The notes under the pieces were generated by a model. That model saw only the letters and a list, made by a program, of their open reading frames with translations. It did not search any database and was not told where the DNA came from. Both the position numbers and the translations under genes were made by a program. From an uncultured Alphaproteobacteria bacterium (GTDB taxonomy: Bacteria > Pseudomonadota > Alphaproteobacteria > Rhizobiales > Xanthobacteraceae), in the NCBI GenBank assembly GCA_963823115.1, contig CAWGKJ010000015.1, positions 70,795 through 134,794 on the forward strand: a DNA stretch of 64,000 nucleotides, given 5' to 3'. Positions 780-12,583 of the stretch are shown piece after piece. Position 1 is the first letter of the stretch. Every line of letters begins with the position of its first letter.

Positions 780-1751
780 ATGAAGAATCGTTTGTTGGGT
801 CAGTGGATCGAAAAGCAATTGGCCGATCGCCCCTTGCGGGCGAATTCGCTGATCATCACGATATACGGTGACATGATCGCGCCGCACGGCGGTACCGCCT
901 GGCTCGGCGGCCTTATCCGTCTGGTGGAGCCGCTCGGACTCAATCCGCGCACGGTGCGCACCTCGGTGTTTCGCCTCTCGCGCGAGAAATGGCTCGTGTC
1001 GGAGCAGATCGGCCGGCGCAGCTATTACAGCCTGACCGCGATCGGCCGGCGACGGTTCGAACATGCCTTCCACAGGATATACGACGATGCGCGAGTGTCC
1101 TGGGAAGGCGACTGGCAGGTTGTCCTGACTCCCGGCGACAGCCTGACGCCGGCGCTCCGCGATGCACTGCGAAAGGAGTTGCTCTGGGAGGGGTACGGCG
1201 CCATCGCTCCCGGTGTTTTGGTTCATCCTTCGGGGCAGACCGATGAGCTGCTGGATATTCTCCAGATCGCCGGCGCGCACGACAAAGTGGTAGTGCTGAA
1301 GGCGCAAACCCTCGGCGCTCTTTCCAGCCGGCCGCTGAAGGAACTAGTGGATCAGTGCTGGAATCTGAGTAAGGTCGCGGCCGAATACCAGGCGTTTATC
1401 GACCGCTTCCGCAGCGTGGCGCGGGCGCTGCGTAGCGCGTCGATCCTCGACCCCGAACAGTGCTTCGTCATCCGTACGCTGCTGATGCATGAATTTCGCC
1501 GCGTTCAGCTTCGCGACCCTTCCTTGCCGCGCCAGCTCCTGCCAGACGATTGGCCCGGCTACACGGCGCGGGCCATGTGTCGCGACATCTACCAGCTCTG
1601 CTGGGGGAAGACCGAAGCGCATTTGATGCAAATGCTGGAAACGGCCAATGGGCCGTTGCCGCCGGCGGCGAAGAGCTTCCACGCGCGCTTTGGCGGCATC
1701 CTATTGGATGAACCCGAACCGGGCGGCTCACAACCGATGGGCGCCACTTGA
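780..1751 (+). CDS. paaX: PaaX-family transcriptional repressor (phenylacetyl-CoA-responsive type)
   Basis: SLIITIYGD...VRTSVFRL, LRKELLWEGYG and RDPSLPRQLLPDDWPG are PaaX signatures. ATG at 780 preferred over the ORF-track start at 555. Confidence 0.9.
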   Translation: MKNRLLGQWIEKQLADRPLRANSLIITIYGDMIAPHGGTAWLGGLIRLVEPLGLNPRTVRTSVFRLSREKWLVSEQIGRRSYYSLTAIGRRRFEHAFHRIYDDARVSWEGDWQVVLTPGDSLTPALRDALRKELLWEGYGAIAPGVLVHPSGQTDELLDILQIAGAHDKVVVLKAQTLGALSSRPLKELVDQCWNLSKVAAEYQAFIDRFRSVARALRSASILDPEQCFVIRTLLMHEFRRVQLRDPSLPRQLLPDDWPGYTARAMCRDIYQLCWGKTEAHLMQMLETANGPLPPAAKSFHARFGGILLDEPEPGGSQPMGAT

Positions 1752-1753
1752 AG

Positions 1754-2347
1754 TTACGATGAGGATCGACCCCAGGCCAGAGGCTCGGTATCGTTGGCAA
1801 GACCATCTCCCTGCGCCAACAGGGCATAGCCCGCCTTGAGCGCGTCGACGTTCAGGTCGAGAAAGCCTCTGGGCGCCTCCGCACGCACCACTTGCTCAAT
1901 CTGCGTCCGGTCACAGACGCCGCTCAATGCGACCAGGGCTCCGAGCGCAACGATGTTCGTCACCCGCTCGCTTCCCAATTCCAAAGCGGTGCGGCTGAGC
2001 GGCAAGTGATAACGGCGATAATTGCCCGCCGGTAATTCAGGACAGAGTCTCGTGTCAGCGATGACCAGCGCGCCCGCCTTGAGCAGCGGCCAGGAAGGCT
2101 TGACGGCGAGTTGATCGAGCAGCACCAAATGGTCGATCGCGGTGGCAAGCGGGAAATCCACTTCGGCGTCGGAGATCACCAGGTCCGCATTGCAGAAGCC
2201 ACCGCGCGAGGTCGGCTCATAGGTTTGCGACTGAGCAACGCGTTTGCCGCCGGCGGCCAGAGCATCGGCCAATATCTTGGCACTGAGGAGCAGCCCCTGT
2301 CCGCCGGTGCCGCCGATGCGCATTTCTATCCGCGAGTCGCTCATCAC
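1754..2347 (-). CDS. 2-oxoacid:acceptor oxidoreductase gamma subunit
   Basis: GGTGGQG, QTYEPTSRGG and NIVALGAL motifs. GTG start overlaps the beta-subunit stop. Confidence 0.88.
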   Translation of the reverse strand: MMSDSRIEMRIGGTGGQGLLLSAKILADALAAGGKRVAQSQTYEPTSRGGFCNADLVISDAEVDFPLATAIDHLVLLDQLAVKPSWPLLKAGALVIADTRLCPELPAGNYRRYHLPLSRTALELGSERVTNIVALGALVALSGVCDRTQIEQVVRAEAPRGFLDLNVDALKAGYALLAQGDGLANDTEPLAWGRSSS

Positions 2348-3180
2348 GAGGCTCCCGCTTGCGACGCCGCGGCGAGCCTATAGGTGGCGCCGTATTCGGG
2401 GCGATCATTCCTCGCCAGAATTCCGGTCGGCAGATCGTTCGACCGGAACGGGGAATCCAACGTATCGCGGTAAGAGCTCGGACGTATCTCGCTCTTTTGG
2501 CGCATGATCATTTCAGGCGACGAGCCTAGATCGTTCTTGCGTCCGAAGATCTCCGTGCAGTCGGACAGAACCTCGACAAATGCGAACCCCGGATGCTCGA
2601 GCCCGGCCTTGATCAGTTCCTTGAGCTTGGGAACGTGGTGCGTCACTTCACGGCCGACGAAACCCGCCCCGGCTGCGACCGCGAGCGCGCAGGCATCAAA
2701 GCGCGGCTCCTGGTTTCCGAGCGGTGTCGTCGTCGTCAGCCGCGTTTCCGACGTGGTCGGAGAAACCTGGCCGCCGGTCATGCCGTAAATTTCATTGTTG
2801 AGCATCAAGCAGGTCAGCTTGAGATTGCGGCGGCAAGCGTGGATCAGATGGTTTCCGCCGATCGCGAGACAGTCGCCATCCCCGGTTATGACGATGACAT
2901 GGAGGTCCGGACGGGCCAGCGCGAGCCCCGTCGCATAGGCCAGCGGTCGGCCGTGGGTGACATGGAAGGTGTTGGCATCGATATAGGCAGACAGCCGTCC
3001 GGCGCAGCCGATGCCGGACACGACGGCGAGCTTGTCCTTGTCGAGGTCGAGCTCGTGGACCGCCCACAACAACGCCCGCAACGCGATACCATGACCGCAG
3101 CCGGGACAGAGAAAGTGAGGCATCATCTCCAGGCGGAGATAGTTTCTGATGTCGAAGCCGGGGGCTGAATCGATGAACAC
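2344..3180 (-). CDS. 2-oxoacid:acceptor oxidoreductase beta (TPP-binding) subunit
   Basis: CPGCGHG, SGIGC, HGR and the TPP motif GDGD...NNEIYGMTGGQ. GTG at 3180 with GAGGAG RBS. Confidence 0.9.
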   Translation of the reverse strand: MFIDSAPGFDIRNYLRLEMMPHFLCPGCGHGIALRALLWAVHELDLDKDKLAVVSGIGCAGRLSAYIDANTFHVTHGRPLAYATGLALARPDLHVIVITGDGDCLAIGGNHLIHACRRNLKLTCLMLNNEIYGMTGGQVSPTTSETRLTTTTPLGNQEPRFDACALAVAAGAGFVGREVTHHVPKLKELIKAGLEHPGFAFVEVLSDCTEIFGRKNDLGSSPEMIMRQKSEIRPSSYRDTLDSPFRSNDLPTGILARNDRPEYGATYRLAAASQAGAS

Positions 3181-4346
3181 TACATCCTCCTCGCCAGAGC
3201 CGCAGCGTGTGTGGCGATATCTACCGGCGTGATTGCCTCGCCGCTGAAAAGATGAATACCTTCGACCGGCGTTCCGCCGAGCACGCGTTCGACCACAAGG
3301 CGAAGCTGGCCGGTATTCATTTCGGGAACGAGCACGGCGCGCGCCTTTGCGGTTGCCTGGCGCAACGCCTGTTCGGGGAACGGCCAGAACGTTATCGGAC
3401 GGAACAGTCCCGCGCGGAGCCCCTGTGATCGGCACAGTTCAACGGCACGGATCGCTGCGCGGGCACTGATGCCGATGGCAACGATGACTACGTCGGCATC
3501 GTCGCAGCGCAGCGCTTCCCAGGAGTCGATCACATCACGGTGCTGGTCCAGCTTGGAAAAGAGTCGTGACAGGTTGCGGGTAACGGCCTCCGGGTCCTGG
3601 GTCGGGAAGCCGTCTTCGCGGTGGGTCAAGCCTGTTGTGTGGGTGCGATAGCCGGCGCCCGGCCGCGCCATGGCTGGAATACAGTCGTCGCCGGCAGCAT
3701 AGGGCTTTGCGGTTGAACGCGGCCCGCTCATCAATTTGCGTTCCGCCCGGTTCAGGCTCCCGGTGTTGTTGAGAGCAGCCGTTTCGGAAAGTTGCGCGAT
3801 CACCTGGTCATAGAGCAGGACTACCGGGGAGCGGAATTGCTCGGCCAAGTCGAAAGCGCGGATGGTCTCGCTGTAGATTTCCCCAACCGAGGCCGGCGTA
3901 AGTGCGATGATCGGATAATCGCCATGGCTGCCCCAGCGCGCTTGCATCAGGTCAGCCTGTGACGGTCGGGTCGGCATGCCGGTGGATGGTCCGCCCCGCA
4001 TGACATTGACGATGACGCAGGGGATTTCGGCTCCCGCAGCGTAGCCGATATTCTCCTGTTTCAGCGAAAATCCCGGTCCGCTGGTCGCGGTCATGGATTT
4101 GGTGCCGCCCATCGATGCGCCGATCACGGCCGCTATGGAGGCGATTTCATCCTCCATCTGCACGAATACGCCATCGACTTTCGGCAACAAGCGCGCCAGC
4201 CGCTCGGCAATTTCCGACGACGGGGTGATCGGGTATCCGGCAAAGAACCGGCAGCCGGCGGCGATCGCTCCCAACGCACAAGCGTGGTTGCCCGAGATCA
4301 GCTTCGAGACGTTCTTGCCGGTAAGCGCGGTATCAATGGCGTTCAT
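3180..4346 (-). CDS. 2-oxoacid:acceptor oxidoreductase alpha subunit (no fused gamma domain)
   Basis: GYPITPSSEI, QMEDE, TATSGPG, RGGPSTGMPT and EMNTGQ motifs. Confidence 0.92.
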   Translation of the reverse strand: MNAIDTALTGKNVSKLISGNHACALGAIAAGCRFFAGYPITPSSEIAERLARLLPKVDGVFVQMEDEIASIAAVIGASMGGTKSMTATSGPGFSLKQENIGYAAGAEIPCVIVNVMRGGPSTGMPTRPSQADLMQARWGSHGDYPIIALTPASVGEIYSETIRAFDLAEQFRSPVVLLYDQVIAQLSETAALNNTGSLNRAERKLMSGPRSTAKPYAAGDDCIPAMARPGAGYRTHTTGLTHREDGFPTQDPEAVTRNLSRLFSKLDQHRDVIDSWEALRCDDADVVIVAIGISARAAIRAVELCRSQGLRAGLFRPITFWPFPEQALRQATAKARAVLVPEMNTGQLRLVVERVLGGTPVEGIHLFSGEAITPVDIATHAAALARRM

Positions 4347-5308
4347 CGCAGAGCCGCTCCTTCTGCAACGGTCGTTGCATCATCGAGATGAACCCGAATG
4401 GCGAAATCCGGACACAGCCACTCGCACAACCGGCAACCCGTACACTTGTCCGGAGCGGACAGTTCCGCGATCTGCTCTGCATCCAGTCGCAAACAGTGCT
4501 CCGGACAGAATTTCACGCAGATATCGCAGCTCTTGCACCACTCGCGATTGATTTCGAGGTGTATTCGGCCGGCTTCGCCCGCCGGCGCCGGTATCCTCGC
4601 CGTCGGCGTTTCCTGCAGCGGAGTGGATTTTCGCGCCTCGTCGATCCAAATGCGACCGCGGCGGAAAGCCTCCAGGTTTACGGTGACGGTCTTCTTCGGT
4701 ACGAAGCTGGCAACCGCCGTCTCCCAATCCGCGACAGAAAAATCCAGTGTGGTGGAAAGCGCGCCGAGCAGGATGACGTTCGCCGCGCGTTCGTTGCCGA
4801 GTTCTTCTGCCATATGGGATGCGTCGATCGCATATCCCTCCGCCACGTGAGCAATGACTTCGGCCGGCGTCTCGGACGAATAGCGCAACGGCGCGCCCGG
4901 ATGGCGATTGAGGCAGGCAAACGGTGGAACGATGCGCTTGGTGTCACAGATGAGGATGCCGGTGGTTGGTTTGAGGAAGGGCAGCCACCGCATTCCCTCT
5001 GCCCATTCCAGTGCGACGAGAATATCGACTTCGCCTTTCGGGATGGTCGGCGACCACACCCTTCGCCCAAACCGCACATGGCTGAACACAGCGCCGCCGC
5101 GCTTGGCCATGCCGTGGACTTCGCTCTGTTTGACATCGAAGCCCTGGGACTGCGCGAGCAAAGCGAGCACTTTGGAGACCATGATGACGCCTTGGCCGCC
5201 TACGCCGACGATCAGGACGTTGGTCGGCTCGTGCGCTGGATTGGCCGCCGCTGCCGTGCGATCCGGCAACGCGGTGGCGGAAAGGACCGTGGGGGGCGGG
5301 CCGCTCAT
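4343..5308 (-). CDS. iorB: Indolepyruvate oxidoreductase beta subunit fused to a C-terminal 2x[4Fe-4S] ferredoxin (delta-like) domain
   Basis: GVGGQG and SEVHGMAKRGG (IorB), then a Pro/Ala linker, then CKSCDICVKFCP and CTGCRLCEWLCPDFAI. ATG at 5308 overlaps the iorA stop. Confidence 0.85.
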   Translation of the reverse strand: MSGPPPTVLSATALPDRTAAAANPAHEPTNVLIVGVGGQGVIMVSKVLALLAQSQGFDVKQSEVHGMAKRGGAVFSHVRFGRRVWSPTIPKGEVDILVALEWAEGMRWLPFLKPTTGILICDTKRIVPPFACLNRHPGAPLRYSSETPAEVIAHVAEGYAIDASHMAEELGNERAANVILLGALSTTLDFSVADWETAVASFVPKKTVTVNLEAFRRGRIWIDEARKSTPLQETPTARIPAPAGEAGRIHLEINREWCKSCDICVKFCPEHCLRLDAEQIAELSAPDKCTGCRLCEWLCPDFAIRVHLDDATTVAEGAALR

Positions 5309-7125
5309 TGTGTCACCGGAGCAGCAGACTTGATGCAATCCACGCTGCATACTTGTGCGCAGAGCGTGCAACCGATGCAAAGCGACTGGTCGATCTGGAC
5401 CTTATGCCTGCCCTCGAACCATTGACCGCTCCAGGTTATCGCCGGGCAGCCCAGGTTCATGCACGACTGGCAGGCACTGCACTGTTCCTCGACGACCTGC
5501 AACGGCGGGCCCTTGATTTTGACGGGGTCAAGGACGCAAGGGCGATTGGCGATCAGGACGGAAACGCCGCGGTAATTGATGGCATCGCGCAACGAGTGAT
5601 GCATGGCGGCAAGGTCGTAGGAATCCACAGTGCGTACCCATTCCACGCCGATCGCGCGAACCAGCGCTTCGTAATTCACCTGCGGCGCGTCCTCTCCCCT
5701 GAGCGTCTTGCCCGTGCCGGGATGTTGCTGACCTCCGGTCATCGCCGTCACATGGTTGTCGAGCAGCAGCACCGTGATGTTGGCCTGGTTGTAGACAGCG
5801 TTGAGGAGTGACGGAATTCCCGCGTGCAGGAAGGTCGAATCGCCGATGGTAGCGATGACCGGCTTGGTTTCGCCAGCCTTGACCATGCCGATCGCGTTTC
5901 CGATCGAGGATCCCATCGACACAGTTGTGTCCATGCCGCGCAGCGGATCGAGGCATGCCAGGGTGTAGCAGCCGATATCTCCGGCGACGCGCGCGCCGGC
6001 AGAGCGCACGGCCATGAAGCTCGATGTATGCGGGCAACCGGCGCAAAGCACGGGCGGACGCACCAACGGCTCCGGTGTCCACGGGCTTTGATGCGGGCGC
6101 GGCGCAAGAATCCCGGCCTGCTCGAACCCGGCGCGAACGAGCTCAGGAGACAATTCGCCGCTTCGGGGAAAGAAGCGCTTGCCCTCAACCTGAAATCCCA
6201 GCACGCGGATTTGCTGTTCGATCACGGGTTCGAGTTCCTCGACCACGAAAATACGGTCGACCAACTCGCAATAGCGGCGCAGTAACTCGTCCGGCAGCGG
6301 CCACGAAGCGCCCAGCTTCAGCACACTCGCGTCAGGAAGCGCTTCGCGCACGTAAGAATAGCACGTTCCCGCCGTGATGACGCCGAAGCTCGGGTCGCCG
6401 TCCTCCCAGCGATTGATCGGGCTTTCCGAAAAATGCGCCTTCAAGCGCGCCTCGCGCTCGAGCACGACGCCATGGCGTCGCCGGGCGTGGGCCGGAATCA
6501 TGACATTCTTCGCAGGGTCTTCGATGAACTTGCGCGGCGGCGGCTCCACGCGATCGCCGATCATCACCGCACTGCGGGTATGCGAAAGACGGGTCGTACT
6601 GCGCACGATCACGGGTGTGTCGAACGTCTCCGAAAGCTCGAACGCAAGGCGCGTAAAATCAAGCGCCTCCTGGGCATCGCTCGGCTCGAGCACCGGAACG
6701 GTAGCCAGCGCTCCGTAGATTCGTGTGTCCTGCTCGTTCTGCGAACTGTGAATGCCGGGATCGTCGCACACGGCGAGGACCAGCCCGCCGTTTACGCCAA
6801 TATAGGTTTGCGACAGGAATGCGTCAGCCGCAACGTTGAGTCCGACGTGCTTCATGGCAGCCAGTGCGCGCCGTCCGGCAAAGGATGCGCCGATCGCAAC
6901 GTCGAGCGCGACCTTTTCATTGGTCGACCACTGGGCGTGCACGCTCTCCGCCGGATAGGTGGCCAGCGTTTCGAGAATTTCAGTGCTCGGTGTGCCCGGG
7001 TAGGCGGCGGCGACCTTCACGCCAGCCTCCCACGCGCCGCGCGCGATCGCTTCATTCCCCGTCAGCGGACGAGTTTCCTTTGTCTCGCCAGCCGGCGGCT
7101 CAACGGCCTGCAATCCTTGATCCAT
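5305..7125 (-). CDS. iorA: Indolepyruvate (aryl-pyruvate):ferredoxin oxidoreductase alpha subunit
   Basis: GNEAIARGA, YPGTPSTEI, MKHVGLNVAAD, SSQNEQD, CAGCPH, GDIGCY, GDSTFLH and C-terminal Fe-S motifs. ATG at 7125. Confidence 0.93.
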   Translation of the reverse strand: MDQGLQAVEPPAGETKETRPLTGNEAIARGAWEAGVKVAAAYPGTPSTEILETLATYPAESVHAQWSTNEKVALDVAIGASFAGRRALAAMKHVGLNVAADAFLSQTYIGVNGGLVLAVCDDPGIHSSQNEQDTRIYGALATVPVLEPSDAQEALDFTRLAFELSETFDTPVIVRSTTRLSHTRSAVMIGDRVEPPPRKFIEDPAKNVMIPAHARRRHGVVLEREARLKAHFSESPINRWEDGDPSFGVITAGTCYSYVREALPDASVLKLGASWPLPDELLRRYCELVDRIFVVEELEPVIEQQIRVLGFQVEGKRFFPRSGELSPELVRAGFEQAGILAPRPHQSPWTPEPLVRPPVLCAGCPHTSSFMAVRSAGARVAGDIGCYTLACLDPLRGMDTTVSMGSSIGNAIGMVKAGETKPVIATIGDSTFLHAGIPSLLNAVYNQANITVLLLDNHVTAMTGGQQHPGTGKTLRGEDAPQVNYEALVRAIGVEWVRTVDSYDLAAMHHSLRDAINYRGVSVLIANRPCVLDPVKIKGPPLQVVEEQCSACQSCMNLGCPAITWSGQWFEGRHKVQIDQSLCIGCTLCAQVCSVDCIKSAAPVTQ

Positions 7126-7195
7126 CCCTATTGCCCCAACTGGACTTGGCTGTTCTGCCAAACACCTATTGTTCTTCAATCATCAACCAACGTAA

Positions 7196-7209
7196 TTGAG
7201 CCAGATCAA
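7196..7209. promoter_or_regulatory. FNR/FixK/AadR-type box (one mismatch) upstream of iorA
   Basis: TTGAG-CCAG-ATCAA versus consensus TTGAT-N4-ATCAA, about 70 bp upstream of the iorA start. Confidence 0.55.
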
Positions 7210-7647
7210 TCGGTTACTGCTCAACTTCCGAACAACAGCCGAGATTCCCAGCTTGCGCGGACCGAAATACGCATTATAGTACCAAATATAATAATAAGAA
7301 CTCTGGAGCAACTGTAAATGCGCATGGAACTGCGGACAGGGAGAGACAATTCTTGATCGTCGCCGTTTGCCGTCGATGAGTATGTGAGCCAGCGCTGCCT
7401 CAGGTTGCATGTGAAACGGACGATTGGTCCCTGGAAATATCAGCGGTGGATCGAATTCGTTGATAGCCTGTCCGAGATCGCGACCGGGAGCCTTCAGCGC
7501 TACATGCGGCGTGACATGGAACTCGGATCAAACAGTGGGGCTGCCGATTTCCGTGCTATCTGAATTGATGGTCTCGCCACATGGTTGTGAAATGGCGGGA
7601 TCAAGTCCGTCGCCCCGTTTTGTACGCCATCCATGGTGAGGAGCAGC

Positions 7648-9204: not shown

Positions 9205-9741
9205 TCACTCCGAATGAACGGGAGGATCCGGATCCTCATCCCATCCGGGTTCGTCCGGAGCGAATTGCTTCAGCCATTTATCAACCCAGACCACGTGATC
9301 TCGTTCATCCGCGGCCATTTGCGCCGCAAGCGCGGCGATCTGGGGATCGGTCGCGGCGGCCGCGATGGCTTCGAAATACGTGACCGCACGCTCCTCGTTG
9401 AACCGCGCCAGCATCAGGGCGCGGTAGGGCGTCATCAAGTAGTGGACGCCCTCGAAATCAGTGGCTTCAGGACCTTCCGGGCCGGTCCAGGTAAAGCTGG
9501 CCGGACGGCCTTCGACGAGGGCGTCGCCCGCGCGGCGGGCGATCTCATTGCGGTGTTCGGCCTCGATCAGGGCCATCTTGCGAAAAATCGCGGCGATCTC
9601 CCTGTTGTTGTGCACCTCCATCTGGTCGGCCAACAGGTTATAGCGCTCGGTGGCTTCCTCTTCGATGGCAAGAGCTTGCGCGAAAAACTCGGCAACGCTG
9701 TTGAATTTTGGCAGCTCGTTCGGTTGCTGGGAACCGGTCAT
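9205..9741 (-). CDS. Rubrerythrin/ferritin-like di-iron protein without rubredoxin domain
   Basis: ALAIEEEATERY...EAEH...EERAVTYF...ERDH (two ExxH motifs). ATGA overlap with korB. Confidence 0.8.
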   Translation of the reverse strand: MTGSQQPNELPKFNSVAEFFAQALAIEEEATERYNLLADQMEVHNNREIAAIFRKMALIEAEHRNEIARRAGDALVEGRPASFTWTGPEGPEATDFEGVHYLMTPYRALMLARFNEERAVTYFEAIAAAATDPQIAALAAQMAADERDHVVWVDKWLKQFAPDEPGWDEDPDPPVHSE

Positions 9742-10568
9742 ATAGCGAACTCGGCTTCGAGGTGGGACGGATCCAGGTGAGCCAGCGGCTTGGGTTGATA
9801 GGGTGCGCGATTGCCGCGGTAGAGAACGCCGATATTGAAGCCATCATCGGTCATCAGGCGGCGCGCGGCACGTGCCGGATCGTCCGTCTCCGGCACGATC
9901 GCTTTATGGACGAGAGTCTTCCAGCCCTTCTGCTGGTCTTCGCGAAACGTGACGCAGGGACTCAGAATTTGCACAAAGGAAAACCCCGGTGTCTGAACGG
10001 CGTCGACGATCAGTTTGGCGCAGCCGCCGACGTCGCCTGAAAAGCCGCGCGCGATGAAATTGGCACCGGAAGCGAGCGCGACCACCAGCGGATGAAACGG
10101 ACTGAGACCGGTGCCGCCCGGTGCGATGGCGGTGTCCCAGTCGGACTCGGTCGTCGGCGATGGTTGCCCCTTGGTCATGCCGTAGATGCGGTTATCCATG
10201 ACGATATAGGTCAGGTCGATATTGCGGCGGCAGGCGTGAAGGAAGTGGTTGCCGCCGATCGAAAAGCCGTCGCCGTCGCCGCTGGCGACGAGGACGGTCA
10301 AGTCGGGACGGGCCACTTTAAGTCCGGTGGCAAGGGCCAGGGAACGGCCATGGACACCGTGAAAGCCGTAACAGTTTGTATAAGCGGGGATACGCGACGA
10401 GCAGCCAATGCCCGAAACGATTGCGACCTGTTCCGGCGGAAGCGCGAGTTCGGCCAACGCCCGCTGGAAGGAACTCAGCACCGCATGGTCGCCGCATCCC
10501 GGGCACCAAACCGGCTTGACCCCCGACTTGTAATCGGCAGGCGTGAAGGTATTCGGGATCATGTTCAT
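9738..10568 (-). CDS. korB: 2-oxoglutarate:ferredoxin oxidoreductase beta subunit
   Basis: WCPGCGD, SGIGCSSR, HGVHGR, GDGDGFSIGGNH. Located next to bcr genes. Confidence 0.88.
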   Translation of the reverse strand: MNMIPNTFTPADYKSGVKPVWCPGCGDHAVLSSFQRALAELALPPEQVAIVSGIGCSSRIPAYTNCYGFHGVHGRSLALATGLKVARPDLTVLVASGDGDGFSIGGNHFLHACRRNIDLTYIVMDNRIYGMTKGQPSPTTESDWDTAIAPGGTGLSPFHPLVVALASGANFIARGFSGDVGGCAKLIVDAVQTPGFSFVQILSPCVTFREDQQKGWKTLVHKAIVPETDDPARAARRLMTDDGFNIGVLYRGNRAPYQPKPLAHLDPSHLEAEFAI

Positions 10569-12295
10569 GCGCGTGCCCCTCTCTGAATATATGCGAAGGC
10601 CTCGCCCGGCCGGATCGGCAGCGGGCCGGGACAGTGAATCGGGATGACGTCGTGGGGCAGATCGTAATGAGCGCGCAGATAGCGCCAGAACTGTCCGGTG
10701 TGATTTTGTTCGATCACAAGGATGCGCTTCACACCCTCAAGCGCGGCCGCCAGCCGTGCCGGTTGAACCGGCGCGATCAGGCGCAGCGCGATCAGCTTGA
10801 CCTTGATGCCGGCAGCACGTGCCGCGGCGACGGCTTCGCGCAAGGGCTCGCTTGATGAGCCCCAGGTCAGAACGGCCAATTCGCCTTCGCCATCGATCTC
10901 AGCCCAGTGCGCGCCAAAGTCGAAAGCCTCCAGCTTGCGTTGGCGCTTGTCGAGCTGGCCGACATGGTCCTTGGCCTGGCTCGAAGGCGTGCCCCGCGCA
11001 TTATGGGTAAGACCGTCGGCCGTATACTGGCCGCCGGGAAGGCCCGGTATCGCCATTGGCGAAACGCCCAATTCGGTTGCGGCATATCGTTCGTAATGAT
11101 CGAGAGGCGCTTCAGGGACCAGGCGTTTGGTCTGGAAGGCAACGTCTTCCGGTTTGTCGATAACGACGCGGGCCTGGCCGAGGGACTGGTCGGAAAGCAT
11201 GATGACCGGCGTCTGGAACGTTTCGGCCAGATGAACCGACCATTGCGCGGTCAGAAGGCAGTCACCGACGGAGAGGGGTGCCGTTACGATATGGGGAGCA
11301 TCACCATGCAGACCATAGACAGCGATGTTGAGGTCGCTTTGCTCGGATTTTGTTGCAATGCCCGTCGAAGGCCCGGAGCGCATCACATCGACGACGACCA
11401 TCGGAATTTCGGACGCCACGGCGAGGCCGAGAGATTCGATCATCAGGGATAGGCCGGGACCGGCGGTCGCGGTCAGTGATGGAGCGCCACCATAGCTCGC
11501 GCCCATAATCATGTTGATCGAAGCGAGCTCGTCCTCGGCCTGCACCAGCACGCCGCCGGATTGCGGCAAAGCGTGCGCCATCCACTCGAGAATTTCGGTT
11601 GCCGGTGTGATCGGATAACCCGCGACGAATTTGACGCCGCCCTTCAACGCGCCGAACCCGGTTGCCTCGTTGCCAGTGATCGACCAGCGATCTTTCTTTG
11701 GCGCGCCCGGCAGGGCAAGTTTGGTAAAGGTCACGTCCGGTGCCGCGTTCGCGCCGAGCAGAACCGCGCTTTCGCTGGCCGCCAGCGCTTCAGGCTTCTT
11801 GCGGCCTATCGATGCGGCGACCGCGGCGATGATGGCAGTCTCGGGCAGACCAATGAGCCGCGCCAGAGCGCCGAGGGCGACCATCGAAACACGCGCGCCC
11901 TTGATACTTTTTGCGAGCTTCGCCATCGGCACGAGCCCGACGGCGGCGCCGGTATCCTTCAGAAAGCCCGGCATTTCGCCAGCAGCGGGATCCGCAATGA
12001 TCAGGCTGGCGGAATCCAGCGGCAGCTCGTCGGCGAAACGCTGCACATTGTCGAAATCGAGGGCCAGCAGAATGTCGAACCGGTCATCGGGCGACTGAAC
12101 GGGCTTCGACGAAAGCCGGATCATCGCCGCCGCCTCGCCGCCCCTGATCTGCGGACCGGTCGAACGCGTCATAAAGCCATAGAGGCCACAACTCGTCGCC
12201 GCGTCGAGCAGCATCTGCCCGGCGGTCATAACGCCGGCGCCGCCCGATCCCGTTAGAACGATGGACAGCGAGGCCGAAGGAGTTGATTTAGTCAT
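10565..12295 (-). CDS. korA: 2-oxoglutarate:ferredoxin oxidoreductase alpha subunit (gamma-alpha fusion type)
   Basis: GSGGAGVMTAG, GPQIRGGE, GYPITPATEI, QAEDE, RSGPSTGIATK. ATG at 12295. Divergent from had, in the context expected for a Bcr electron-donor system. Confidence 0.88.
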   Translation of the reverse strand: MTKSTPSASLSIVLTGSGGAGVMTAGQMLLDAATSCGLYGFMTRSTGPQIRGGEAAAMIRLSSKPVQSPDDRFDILLALDFDNVQRFADELPLDSASLIIADPAAGEMPGFLKDTGAAVGLVPMAKLAKSIKGARVSMVALGALARLIGLPETAIIAAVAASIGRKKPEALAASESAVLLGANAAPDVTFTKLALPGAPKKDRWSITGNEATGFGALKGGVKFVAGYPITPATEILEWMAHALPQSGGVLVQAEDELASINMIMGASYGGAPSLTATAGPGLSLMIESLGLAVASEIPMVVVDVMRSGPSTGIATKSEQSDLNIAVYGLHGDAPHIVTAPLSVGDCLLTAQWSVHLAETFQTPVIMLSDQSLGQARVVIDKPEDVAFQTKRLVPEAPLDHYERYAATELGVSPMAIPGLPGGQYTADGLTHNARGTPSSQAKDHVGQLDKRQRKLEAFDFGAHWAEIDGEGELAVLTWGSSSEPLREAVAAARAAGIKVKLIALRLIAPVQPARLAAALEGVKRILVIEQNHTGQFWRYLRAHYDLPHDVIPIHCPGPLPIRPGEAFAYIQRGARA

Positions 12296-12583
12296 GATGC
12301 CCGCCTCTTCATTTCGCGCGCCCTCCTGTTTGGAGCCATTGTTGCGAATTATCCGCAAGTTCGAGAATCGGGTTGGTACGCAACCCTACAACGGAGTTGG
12401 TTGCGACCCGCGTGAGCAAAAAACGCGCCAACCGCGCGGGCTGGCGTCGAGATGTCGCTGCATTGGCACGATAGCGCTGATACAACGGACTTCTGTCGCA
12501 GGGCTTCTTGCGATGGGCGCCGGATCGATGATGGGCGGCGGGCCGGGAATAGGTCACTAACCGAAATCCGATTTATGGGGTTG

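Follow-up and report, generated by a model that had tools for sequence, protein, structure and literature searches.

A conserved IorB–ferredoxin fusion gene suggests the tethering of two 2-oxoacid:ferredoxin oxidoreductases

In a 64,000-nucleotide stretch of DNA (the window) from an uncultured Alphaproteobacteria bacterium of the family Xanthobacteraceae (GenBank assembly GCA_963823115.1, contig CAWGKJ010000015.1, positions 70,795 to 134,794 of the forward strand), we analyzed an operon of five genes in which iorB, the gene for the small subunit of an indolepyruvate-type ferredoxin oxidoreductase (IOR), continues in frame into a ferredoxin domain that is very probably the delta subunit of a second enzyme. 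We consider it likely, with a rough probability of 60%, that this operon encodes two complete 2-oxoacid:ferredoxin oxidoreductases (OFORs), both dependent on thiamine pyrophosphate (TPP) and physically linked through the IorB-delta chain. The fusion is genuine and of ancient origin: in 84/85 related loci, which stem from Alpha-, Beta-, Gamma- and Deltaproteobacteria, a single open frame covers both IorB and delta. The catalytic TPP motifs and cluster cysteines are kept in both enzyme halves.

OFORs are central to anaerobic carbon and amino-acid metabolism and, to our knowledge, have been described only as single enzymes made from one domain set. A ferredoxin subunit of one enzyme that sits covalently on the CoA-binding subunit of another implies a hetero-complex with two TPP active sites. 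If such a complex forms, it might channel substrates, let electrons leave by a common exit or pass them directly from one 2-oxoacid reaction to the other. We found no description or biochemical study of the IorB-ferredoxin fusion or of the five-gene module in searches of full-text literature or in a 2026 review of pyruvate:ferredoxin oxidoreductase diversity. Public annotations of the fused gene read 'IorB' or '2-oxoacid:acceptor oxidoreductase family protein', and these labels give no hint that the genes of the module belong together. What the window newly contributes is the pad/paaX setting with genuine PadG and PadI, a genome census that speaks against the phenylglyoxylate idea, and a rival reading modelled on oxalate oxidoreductase.

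Organization of the operon

The module comprises the minus-strand genes between positions 7125 and 1754 of the window, whose coordinates are used throughout (lengths in amino acids, aa):

7125..5305, minus strand: iorA, 606 aa
5308..4343, minus strand: fused iorB::delta gene, 321 aa
4346..3180, minus strand: OFOR alpha subunit (domains I and II, Kor/Oor type), 388 aa, with a YPITP motif
3180..2344, minus strand: OFOR beta subunit (domain VI), 278 aa, GTG start after GGAGG
2347..1754, minus strand: OFOR gamma subunit (domain III, Kor/Oor type), 197 aa

The stop codon of each gene overlaps the start codon of the next. The junctions read ATGA between iorA and iorB and again between delta and alpha, TAGTG between alpha and beta, where the GTG start of beta lies one base inside the alpha stop, and GTGATGA between beta and gamma. 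An earlier note on this DNA had described this overlapping five-gene operon with an IorB-delta fusion and no free delta gene, together with a two-subunit korAB at 9.7-12.3 kb and an adjacent PaaX. All five open reading frames (ORFs) and their overlaps are indeed present on the minus strand, korAB is real and located at 9738-12358, and the description proved correct in every detail tested.

Domain structure of the fused gene

The 321-aa fused protein can be divided into three parts:

4628..5308, minus strand: IorB part, with an ATG at 5308 that overlaps the iorA stop (ATGA)
4565..4627, minus strand: Pro/Ala/Thr-rich linker (aa 228-248) that joins IorB to the delta domain
4343..4564, minus strand: delta domain (aa 249-321), 2x[4Fe-4S] of the OorD/KorD type, with a stop that overlaps the alpha start (ATGA)

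The IorB part starts with a disordered N-terminus (aa 1-28), followed by a domain III/POR fold (aa 29-227), and the POR domain (PF01558) is matched over residues 37-219 with 126 bits. IorB models are its top matches, with 200.6 bits for NF005322 (cut-off 237) and 142 bits for TIGR03334 (cut-off 205.8), compared with 41 bits for an OFOR gamma model. The fused protein is thus not a stand-alone IorB of about 190 aa scoring over the cut-off. The delta domain carries two CxxCxxCxxxCP motifs at residues 251-306, CKSCDICVKFCP and CTGCRLCEWLCP. Its best match is OorD, with 47 bits for the NCBIfam OorD model and OorD of Helicobacter pylori as the top match in the Protein Data Bank (PDB; 8ys5_D, E 5.8e-10). 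No separate delta gene is present within the operon, and a free delta subunit of about 70-115 aa is lacking both here and in 84/85 related loci.

The eight delta cysteines are the same in all 36 fused proteins that were aligned. The linker varies freely in length and sequence across the same homologues, with the frame always kept, and spans 20-45 flexible residues in the fused family. In agreement with this architecture, the AlphaFold2 model shows two confident domains; the predicted local distance difference test score (pLDDT) is mostly >90 in the IorB domain and about 58-66 in the linker (residues 228-248).

Distribution and inheritance of the module

The IorB and Fer4 architecture in this gene order is shared by hundreds of bacterial species. 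By word-indexed search, we obtained more than 120 protein clusters of about 320 aa at 72-93% identity, all with POR and Fer4 domains, and a scan of one genome per species revealed at least 547 species encoding a relative, from whose genomes 80 loci were retrieved. Carriers include Xanthobacteraceae, Rhodopseudomonas palustris BisB18, R. faecalis, Blastochloris, Rhodopila, Rhodovulum and Rhodoplanes, as well as Burkholderiales, Gammaproteobacteria, Deltaproteobacteria and SAR324. Conservation of the module extends from Hyphomicrobiales through Burkholderiales, Rhodobacterales and Gammaproteobacteria to SAR324, and its cultured carriers (R. palustris BisB18, R. faecalis, Afifella pfennigii, Blastochloris sulfoviridis and Rhodovulum tesquicola) allow testing. 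The proteins of R. palustris BisB18 are 73-88% identical to those of the window.

Using the window proteins as tblastn queries, we recovered one and the same gene order (iorA, iorB::delta, alpha, beta, gamma) from all loci that were long enough to display it, and divergent fused forms with 45% and 38% identity retain it as well. The sole exception to the open fused frame is a Burkholderiaceae metagenome-assembled genome (L087), whose copy has a broken IorB-delta frame as well as a truncated alpha and gamma; it represents either a decaying copy or a poor assembly. Two further loci (L019 and L055) were counted as fused, as their stop codons fall outside the junction. Over 34 loci, the pairwise identities of the six parts are correlated (r 0.54-0.84), a pattern to be expected of parts that are inherited jointly.

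Of the unfused IorB genes, we looked up the two nearest (48% and 46% identity), and both belong to two-gene iorAB operons without alpha, beta and gamma. A split ancestor with iorB, free delta, alpha, beta and gamma was not found among the loci examined; two short split candidates of high identity (P0129 and P0140) are explained by a contig full of frameshifts and by a contig edge. In the simplest history, an iorAB operon would have come to lie beside a delta-alpha-beta-gamma operon, after which the iorB stop codon would have been lost. Since the order delta-alpha-beta-gamma is that of oorDABC, the loss of this stop between adjacent operons would explain the layout.

Neither the fused gene nor the module was found in the 24 same-genus genomes searched (G001-G024), which contain only a single-chain IOR-family protein of about 1,170 aa. 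The module is present in two other families of the same order. It looks as if the module, and perhaps the whole aromatic island around it, was horizontally acquired, and the absence from same-genus genomes fits an acquisition together with that island.

Some divergent copies are found in other settings. In a JGI metagenome contig (L091, 45% identity), the module lies between two PaaX genes and is accompanied by a PaaK-like ligase, an enoyl-CoA hydratase and a quinohemoprotein amine dehydrogenase operon, which hints at a route from phenylethylamine or phenylalanine to phenylacetyl-CoA. The most divergent modules (L092 and L093, 38% identity) encode a fused protein of 344 aa with a longer linker and are flanked by an HMGL/LeuA-like gene, a family III CoA-transferase, a hydratase, an SDR-family protein, a ChsH2-like protein and a thiolase.

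Affinities of the two enzymes

By its profile match, the iorA product is assigned as the large subunit of an indolepyruvate/arylpyruvate:ferredoxin oxidoreductase, scoring 709.5 bits against TIGR03336 (NCBIfam cut-off 650.9). It has the Pfam domains POR_N, TPP_enzyme_C and Fer4, an own C-terminal 2x[4Fe-4S] domain at aa 544-599, a YPGTP motif at residue 42, the TPP motif GDS..DN at residue 428 and the proximal-cluster cysteines. Enzyme 1 would therefore be an IOR made of IorA and the IorB domain of the fused chain. Based on the pad/paaX/bcr neighbourhood, it is most likely to convert phenylpyruvate to arylacetyl-CoA, and indolepyruvate and 4-hydroxyphenylpyruvate are probably further substrates.

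The second enzyme shows a different affinity. Its alpha subunit scores 548.6 bits against NF006412, over the cut-off of 411, and 408.7 bits against the 2-oxoglutarate-specific NF007206, under the cut-off of 579; the PDB matches are the alpha subunit of a Pyrococcus furiosus 2-ketoacid oxidoreductase (1yd7, E 1e-103), followed by H. pylori OorA (8ys5_A, E 2.8e-85). For the beta subunit, the top PDB match is H. pylori OorB (8ys5_C, E 7.8e-73) and the score against NF007207 is 295 bits (cut-off 364). Across 35 sequences, there is no change in its TPP motif GDG..NN at residue 100 or in its four cluster cysteines, C25, C28, C59 and C208. The gamma subunit matches the gamma chain of a Geobacter OFOR first (3on3, 123 bits) and OorC of Campylobacter and Helicobacter next (54 bits), with 115 bits against NF006323 and about 50 bits against IorB models. 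By these matches, enzyme 2 is a four-subunit Kor/Oor-type OFOR that is nearest to the 2-oxoglutarate enzymes.

The strict co-occurrence of the fusion with the alpha, beta and gamma genes makes it very probable that the delta domain serves this second enzyme as its delta subunit. IorA does not need it, since it already has a double-cluster domain of its own, and alpha, beta and gamma have no delta other than the fused domain. In H. pylori, the operon order is oorD-A-B-C and OorD is placed at the OorB/OorC interface (PMC12307629).

Regarding the substrate of enzyme 2, a 2-oxoglutarate-type compound is our tentative first candidate, and another amino-acid-derived 2-oxoacid is only slightly less likely. 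An aryl-glyoxylate appears unlikely, and a substrate of another kind more unlikely still.

Tethering of the two enzymes

This gene arrangement is explained most economically by a tether between two TPP enzymes. IorB would dock on IorA, and delta on beta/gamma; the chain would then keep the two enzymes at 1:1 in a single complex, and their electron exits would be near each other. The translational coupling of all five genes fits such a stoichiometry. The IOR half would make arylacetyl-CoA under the control of PaaX, and the second half would oxidize or synthesize a 2-oxoacid. What the sequences establish are the gene structure, its conservation, the co-occurrence of the parts and the family affinities; the physical complex, the arylpyruvate substrate and the PaaX control are what we infer.

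Several points weigh against this reading. The complex of both enzymes is predicted here from the genes, and we found no IOR structure against which the geometry could be checked. The IorB, beta, gamma and delta parts all score under the curated cut-offs of their best NCBIfam models. In oxalate oxidoreductase, there is a precedent for a chain of domains III and V that serves one active site, so the fused chain could serve alpha/beta alone. Finally, apart from a PaaK-like ligase, a LIV-type transporter and PaaX, the neighbours of the module are heterogeneous and do not reveal the second substrate. A complex prediction of alpha, beta and gamma with the delta domain scored 0.79, compared with 0.70 for a control in which alpha was replaced, and was given no weight in either direction.

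Alternative readings

The second enzyme could be an aryl-glyoxylate:ferredoxin oxidoreductase with phenylglyoxylate or 4-hydroxyphenylglyoxylate as substrate, so that the complex would perform two steps in the catabolism of Phe and Tyr, converting arylpyruvate to arylacetyl-CoA and, in a later step, arylglyoxylate to aroyl-CoA. PadEGHI, the phenylglyoxylate enzyme, is itself an OFOR of the alpha/beta/gamma/delta type, which makes a shift in specificity conceivable, and the hcr-like genes of the window could take 4-hydroxybenzoyl-CoA. To judge the setting, we read the 19 kb upstream of the window (L098, positions 52000-71500 of the same contig, C15). Ahead of paaX, this region contains a pad-type cluster that is complete, with padB/padC-like molybdenum and iron-sulfur genes, PadG, PadI, a PaaK ligase (702.6 bits, cut-off 646.3) and a LIV-type ABC transporter:

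C15:61537-62688: PadG, 759.5 bits (cut-off 700)
C15:64130-65317: PadI, 779.3 bits (cut-off 700)

Genuine PadG and PadI are hence already present on the same contig, 8-12 kb upstream. The module alpha, beta and gamma subunits reach only 84.7, 31.8 and 38 bits against the PadG, PadI and PadE models (cut-offs 700, 700 and 300), as against 549 and 295 bits for alpha and beta on Kor/Oor-type models. Because PadEFGHI-type genes adjoin, enzyme 2 is here probably not the phenylglyoxylate oxidoreductase. The census points in the same direction: among 50 module-bearing genomes, 8 have a true PadI and 21 a PadB-like orthologue, and 29 have no PadB-like enzyme able to make phenylglyoxylate. With a dedicated phenylglyoxylate enzyme nearby and no PadB-like enzyme in 29/50 genomes, the aryl-glyoxylate step is not the general function of the module and is not needed here.

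What keeps the idea alive are four close relatives (L011, L013, L014 and L025), in which padB- and padC-like genes directly follow the module, with paaK behind them; three of these four genomes were tested (G041, G043 and G046) and hold no PadG or PadI over the cut-off. Against this, relatives without true PadG/PadI hold an unlinked PadG/PadI-like paralogue (283 and 195 bits) that could take over this role, and in several other genomes a PadI-like beta subunit adjoins PadB. Altogether, we regard an aryl-glyoxylate role of the second enzyme as improbable. Of the function suggested in the earlier note, the tethering of two TPP enzymes finds support in a real fusion that co-occurs with alpha, beta and gamma; the aryl-glyoxylate step proposed to follow is not supported for this genome, given the adjoining PadG/PadI and the low Pad scores.

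Several further observations concern the pad genes. In the region upstream of the window (L098), the PadB-like gene is broken into three pieces (4290-5798, 5840-6250 and 6304-6969) and the PadC-like gene into two, and the frame of PadI is broken by one base near L098:12131; these breaks reflect either assembly indels or early gene decay, and the five-gene module itself is intact. In the four close relatives (about 11.5-16.9 kb in each), the module is followed by a 912-aa molybdopterin enzyme, which is 55-64% identical to the PadB-like gene of this genome, a 530-aa Fer4_11 protein and paaK, with no PadEFGHI genes intervening. This genome also contains an extra PadG/PadI-like OFOR pair (C3:132616-134824; about 283/190 bits, far under the cut-off), and the same pair occurs in relatives without true PadG/PadI (G041:C6:360445-362699 and G043:C1:1694177-1696373); this pair may act on phenylglyoxylate, as a divergent form of that enzyme, or on another 2-oxoacid. 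In three other genomes (G076:C200, G054:C235 and G069:C222), a shorter PadI-like beta subunit (210-230 bits) without the N-terminal ferredoxin part lies a few kb from the PadB-like gene and may belong to a variant phenylglyoxylate oxidoreductase.

The next alternative dispenses with the tether. Here, the fused chain of domains III and V would serve alpha/beta in cis and the trailing gamma would partner IorA, leaving two ordinary enzymes with interleaved genes, and the domain count balances under this arrangement too. The top Foldseek matches of the model are the chains of about 310 aa from Moorella oxalate oxidoreductase (5exe_B/5c4i_E, E 2.5e-11), which align over nearly the whole 321 aa. In that enzyme, domains III and V reportedly serve one alpha/beta pair, with no need for a further domain III subunit (work of Gibson et al. 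in 2015). The lineages of the two domains III, however, speak against such a pairing. The N-terminal domain of the fused chain is of the IorB lineage (200 bits for IorB models vs 41 for gamma models), and its nearest unfused relatives that were looked up are the IorB proteins of two-gene iorAB operons. The trailing gamma is of the Kor/Oor lineage, with 115 bits for the OFOR gamma model and 123 bits for the Geobacter gamma, vs about 50 bits for IorB models. In addition, the oorDABC-like order requires no interleaving, as the loss of the iorB stop between adjacent operons suffices. We therefore consider two untethered enzymes quite improbable, and the tethered pair remains our preferred interpretation.

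A third alternative goes beyond tethering: the electrons of arylpyruvate oxidation could pass via the ferredoxin domain of IorA and the tethered delta domain and drive enzyme 2 in reverse as a 2-oxoacid synthase. For example, succinyl-CoA and CO2 would yield 2-oxoglutarate, which would regenerate the amino acceptor for phenylalanine transamination without free ferredoxin. Conservation of the covalent tether is strict, the catalytic and cluster motifs are complete in both halves, and enzyme 2 is by sequence nearest to the 2-oxoglutarate enzymes. Moreover, the module is present in many Rhodobacteraceae, Gammaproteobacteria and other lineages that we take to be largely aerobic or facultative and in which a sink for low-potential ferredoxin is not obvious. 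However, soluble ferredoxin is the usual electron acceptor of both kinds of OFOR, the tally of 97 downstream ORFs showed no conserved aminotransferase next to the module, and the exchange itself is something that we can only infer. We consider it a long shot. If true, it would mean a redox-neutral exchange between 2-oxoacids and acyl-CoAs that dispenses with soluble ferredoxin, with two OFORs acting as one internally wired machine.

Finally, frame breaks in several genes of the pad region immediately upstream of the window might suggest that the fusion is itself an assembly or sequencing indel of this metagenome-assembled genome, but this is excluded by the identical in-frame fusion in 84/85 loci of independent genomes, by the more than 120 protein clusters that bear it, and by contigs from three sequencing runs that cross nt 4473-4643, and with it the linker at 4565-4627, free of indels (apart from the probable source sample, these runs cover small shares of the stretch and served for the indel check only).

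Genomic neighbourhood and regulation

The window as a whole represents an anaerobic aromatic island with korAB, class I benzoyl-CoA reductase (Bcr) genes and hcr-like genes, and a supply of reduced ferredoxin from the module to Bcr is plausible. Two features directly border the operon:

780..1751, plus strand: paaX, 323 aa, probable ATG at 780, TIGR02277 308 bits (cut-off 264.6)
7126..7330, minus strand: non-coding region upstream of iorA, with an AT-rich stretch and a TATAAT-like element

The paaX gene is convergent with the operon, with 2 bp between its end and the gamma stop. PaaX is a repressor that responds to phenylacetyl-CoA, and it is a probable regulator of the operon. The link to phenylacetyl-CoA proposed earlier for the operon is borne out elsewhere: PaaX adjoins the module in at least five other loci (L020, L065, L088, L089 and L091), and within 8 kb of the module a PaaK-like ligase is found in 28/84 loci and a LIV-type transporter in about 20. 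These counts were obtained by seeded tblastn and a Pfam tally; a greedy clustering of ORFs was dropped on account of antisense ORFs in GC-rich DNA. The Pfam tally of the 97 downstream ORFs showed nothing recurrent besides the PaaK-like ligase and no conserved aminotransferase.

In the region upstream of iorA, an inverted repeat, ATACGCATT/AATGCGCAT (7267-7275 and 7317-7325), flanks the TATAAT-like stretch, making 7126..7330 a candidate promoter and operator region as judged from its sequence. No PaaX box of the Escherichia coli type (TGATTC-N18-33-GAATCA, with up to one mismatch per half-site) was found upstream of iorA or paaX.

Comparison with known systems

The module can be compared with four known systems. 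The first is the two-subunit IorAB (TIGR03336/TIGR03334), represented by the Pyrococcus furiosus enzyme that Mai and Adams reportedly described in 1994. As in IorAB, IorA is a full match over the equivalog cut-off with its own ferredoxin domain, the gene for an IorB-type domain III follows with an overlapping start, and the module is tied to a PaaK-type ligase and phenylacetyl-CoA metabolism. In contrast, the module IorB comprises 321 aa instead of about 190, bears the delta ferredoxin of a second enzyme and is translationally coupled to three more OFOR genes, and its IorB part stays under the curated IorB cut-offs.

The second is OorDABC of H. pylori (8YS5), whose chains match the module alpha, beta, gamma and delta and are the top matches for beta and delta. 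The delta-alpha-beta-gamma gene order, the beta cluster cysteines and the 2x[4Fe-4S] delta are shared as well. Unlike the free OorD of 113 aa, however, the module delta is the C-terminal domain of IorB, and the module beta, gamma and delta remain under the Oor equivalog cut-offs.

PadEFGHI (NF045762/764/766), which was reportedly characterized in Azoarcus evansii by Hirsch et al. in 1998, resembles the module as an alpha/beta/gamma/delta-type OFOR of anaerobic phenylalanine and phenylacetate catabolism that is encoded here in the same gene neighbourhood. It differs in that the module operon has no PadF-like NAD module and true PadG and PadI are separate genes.

Lastly, the oxalate oxidoreductase of Moorella thermoacetica (5C4I/5EXE) likewise combines domain III and, behind it, a 2x[4Fe-4S] domain V in one polypeptide. 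The domain III of the module, by contrast, is of the IorB lineage, a separate Kor/Oor-type gamma is always encoded, and alpha and beta score only 53 and 38 bits on the oxalate models (cut-offs 500 and 590).

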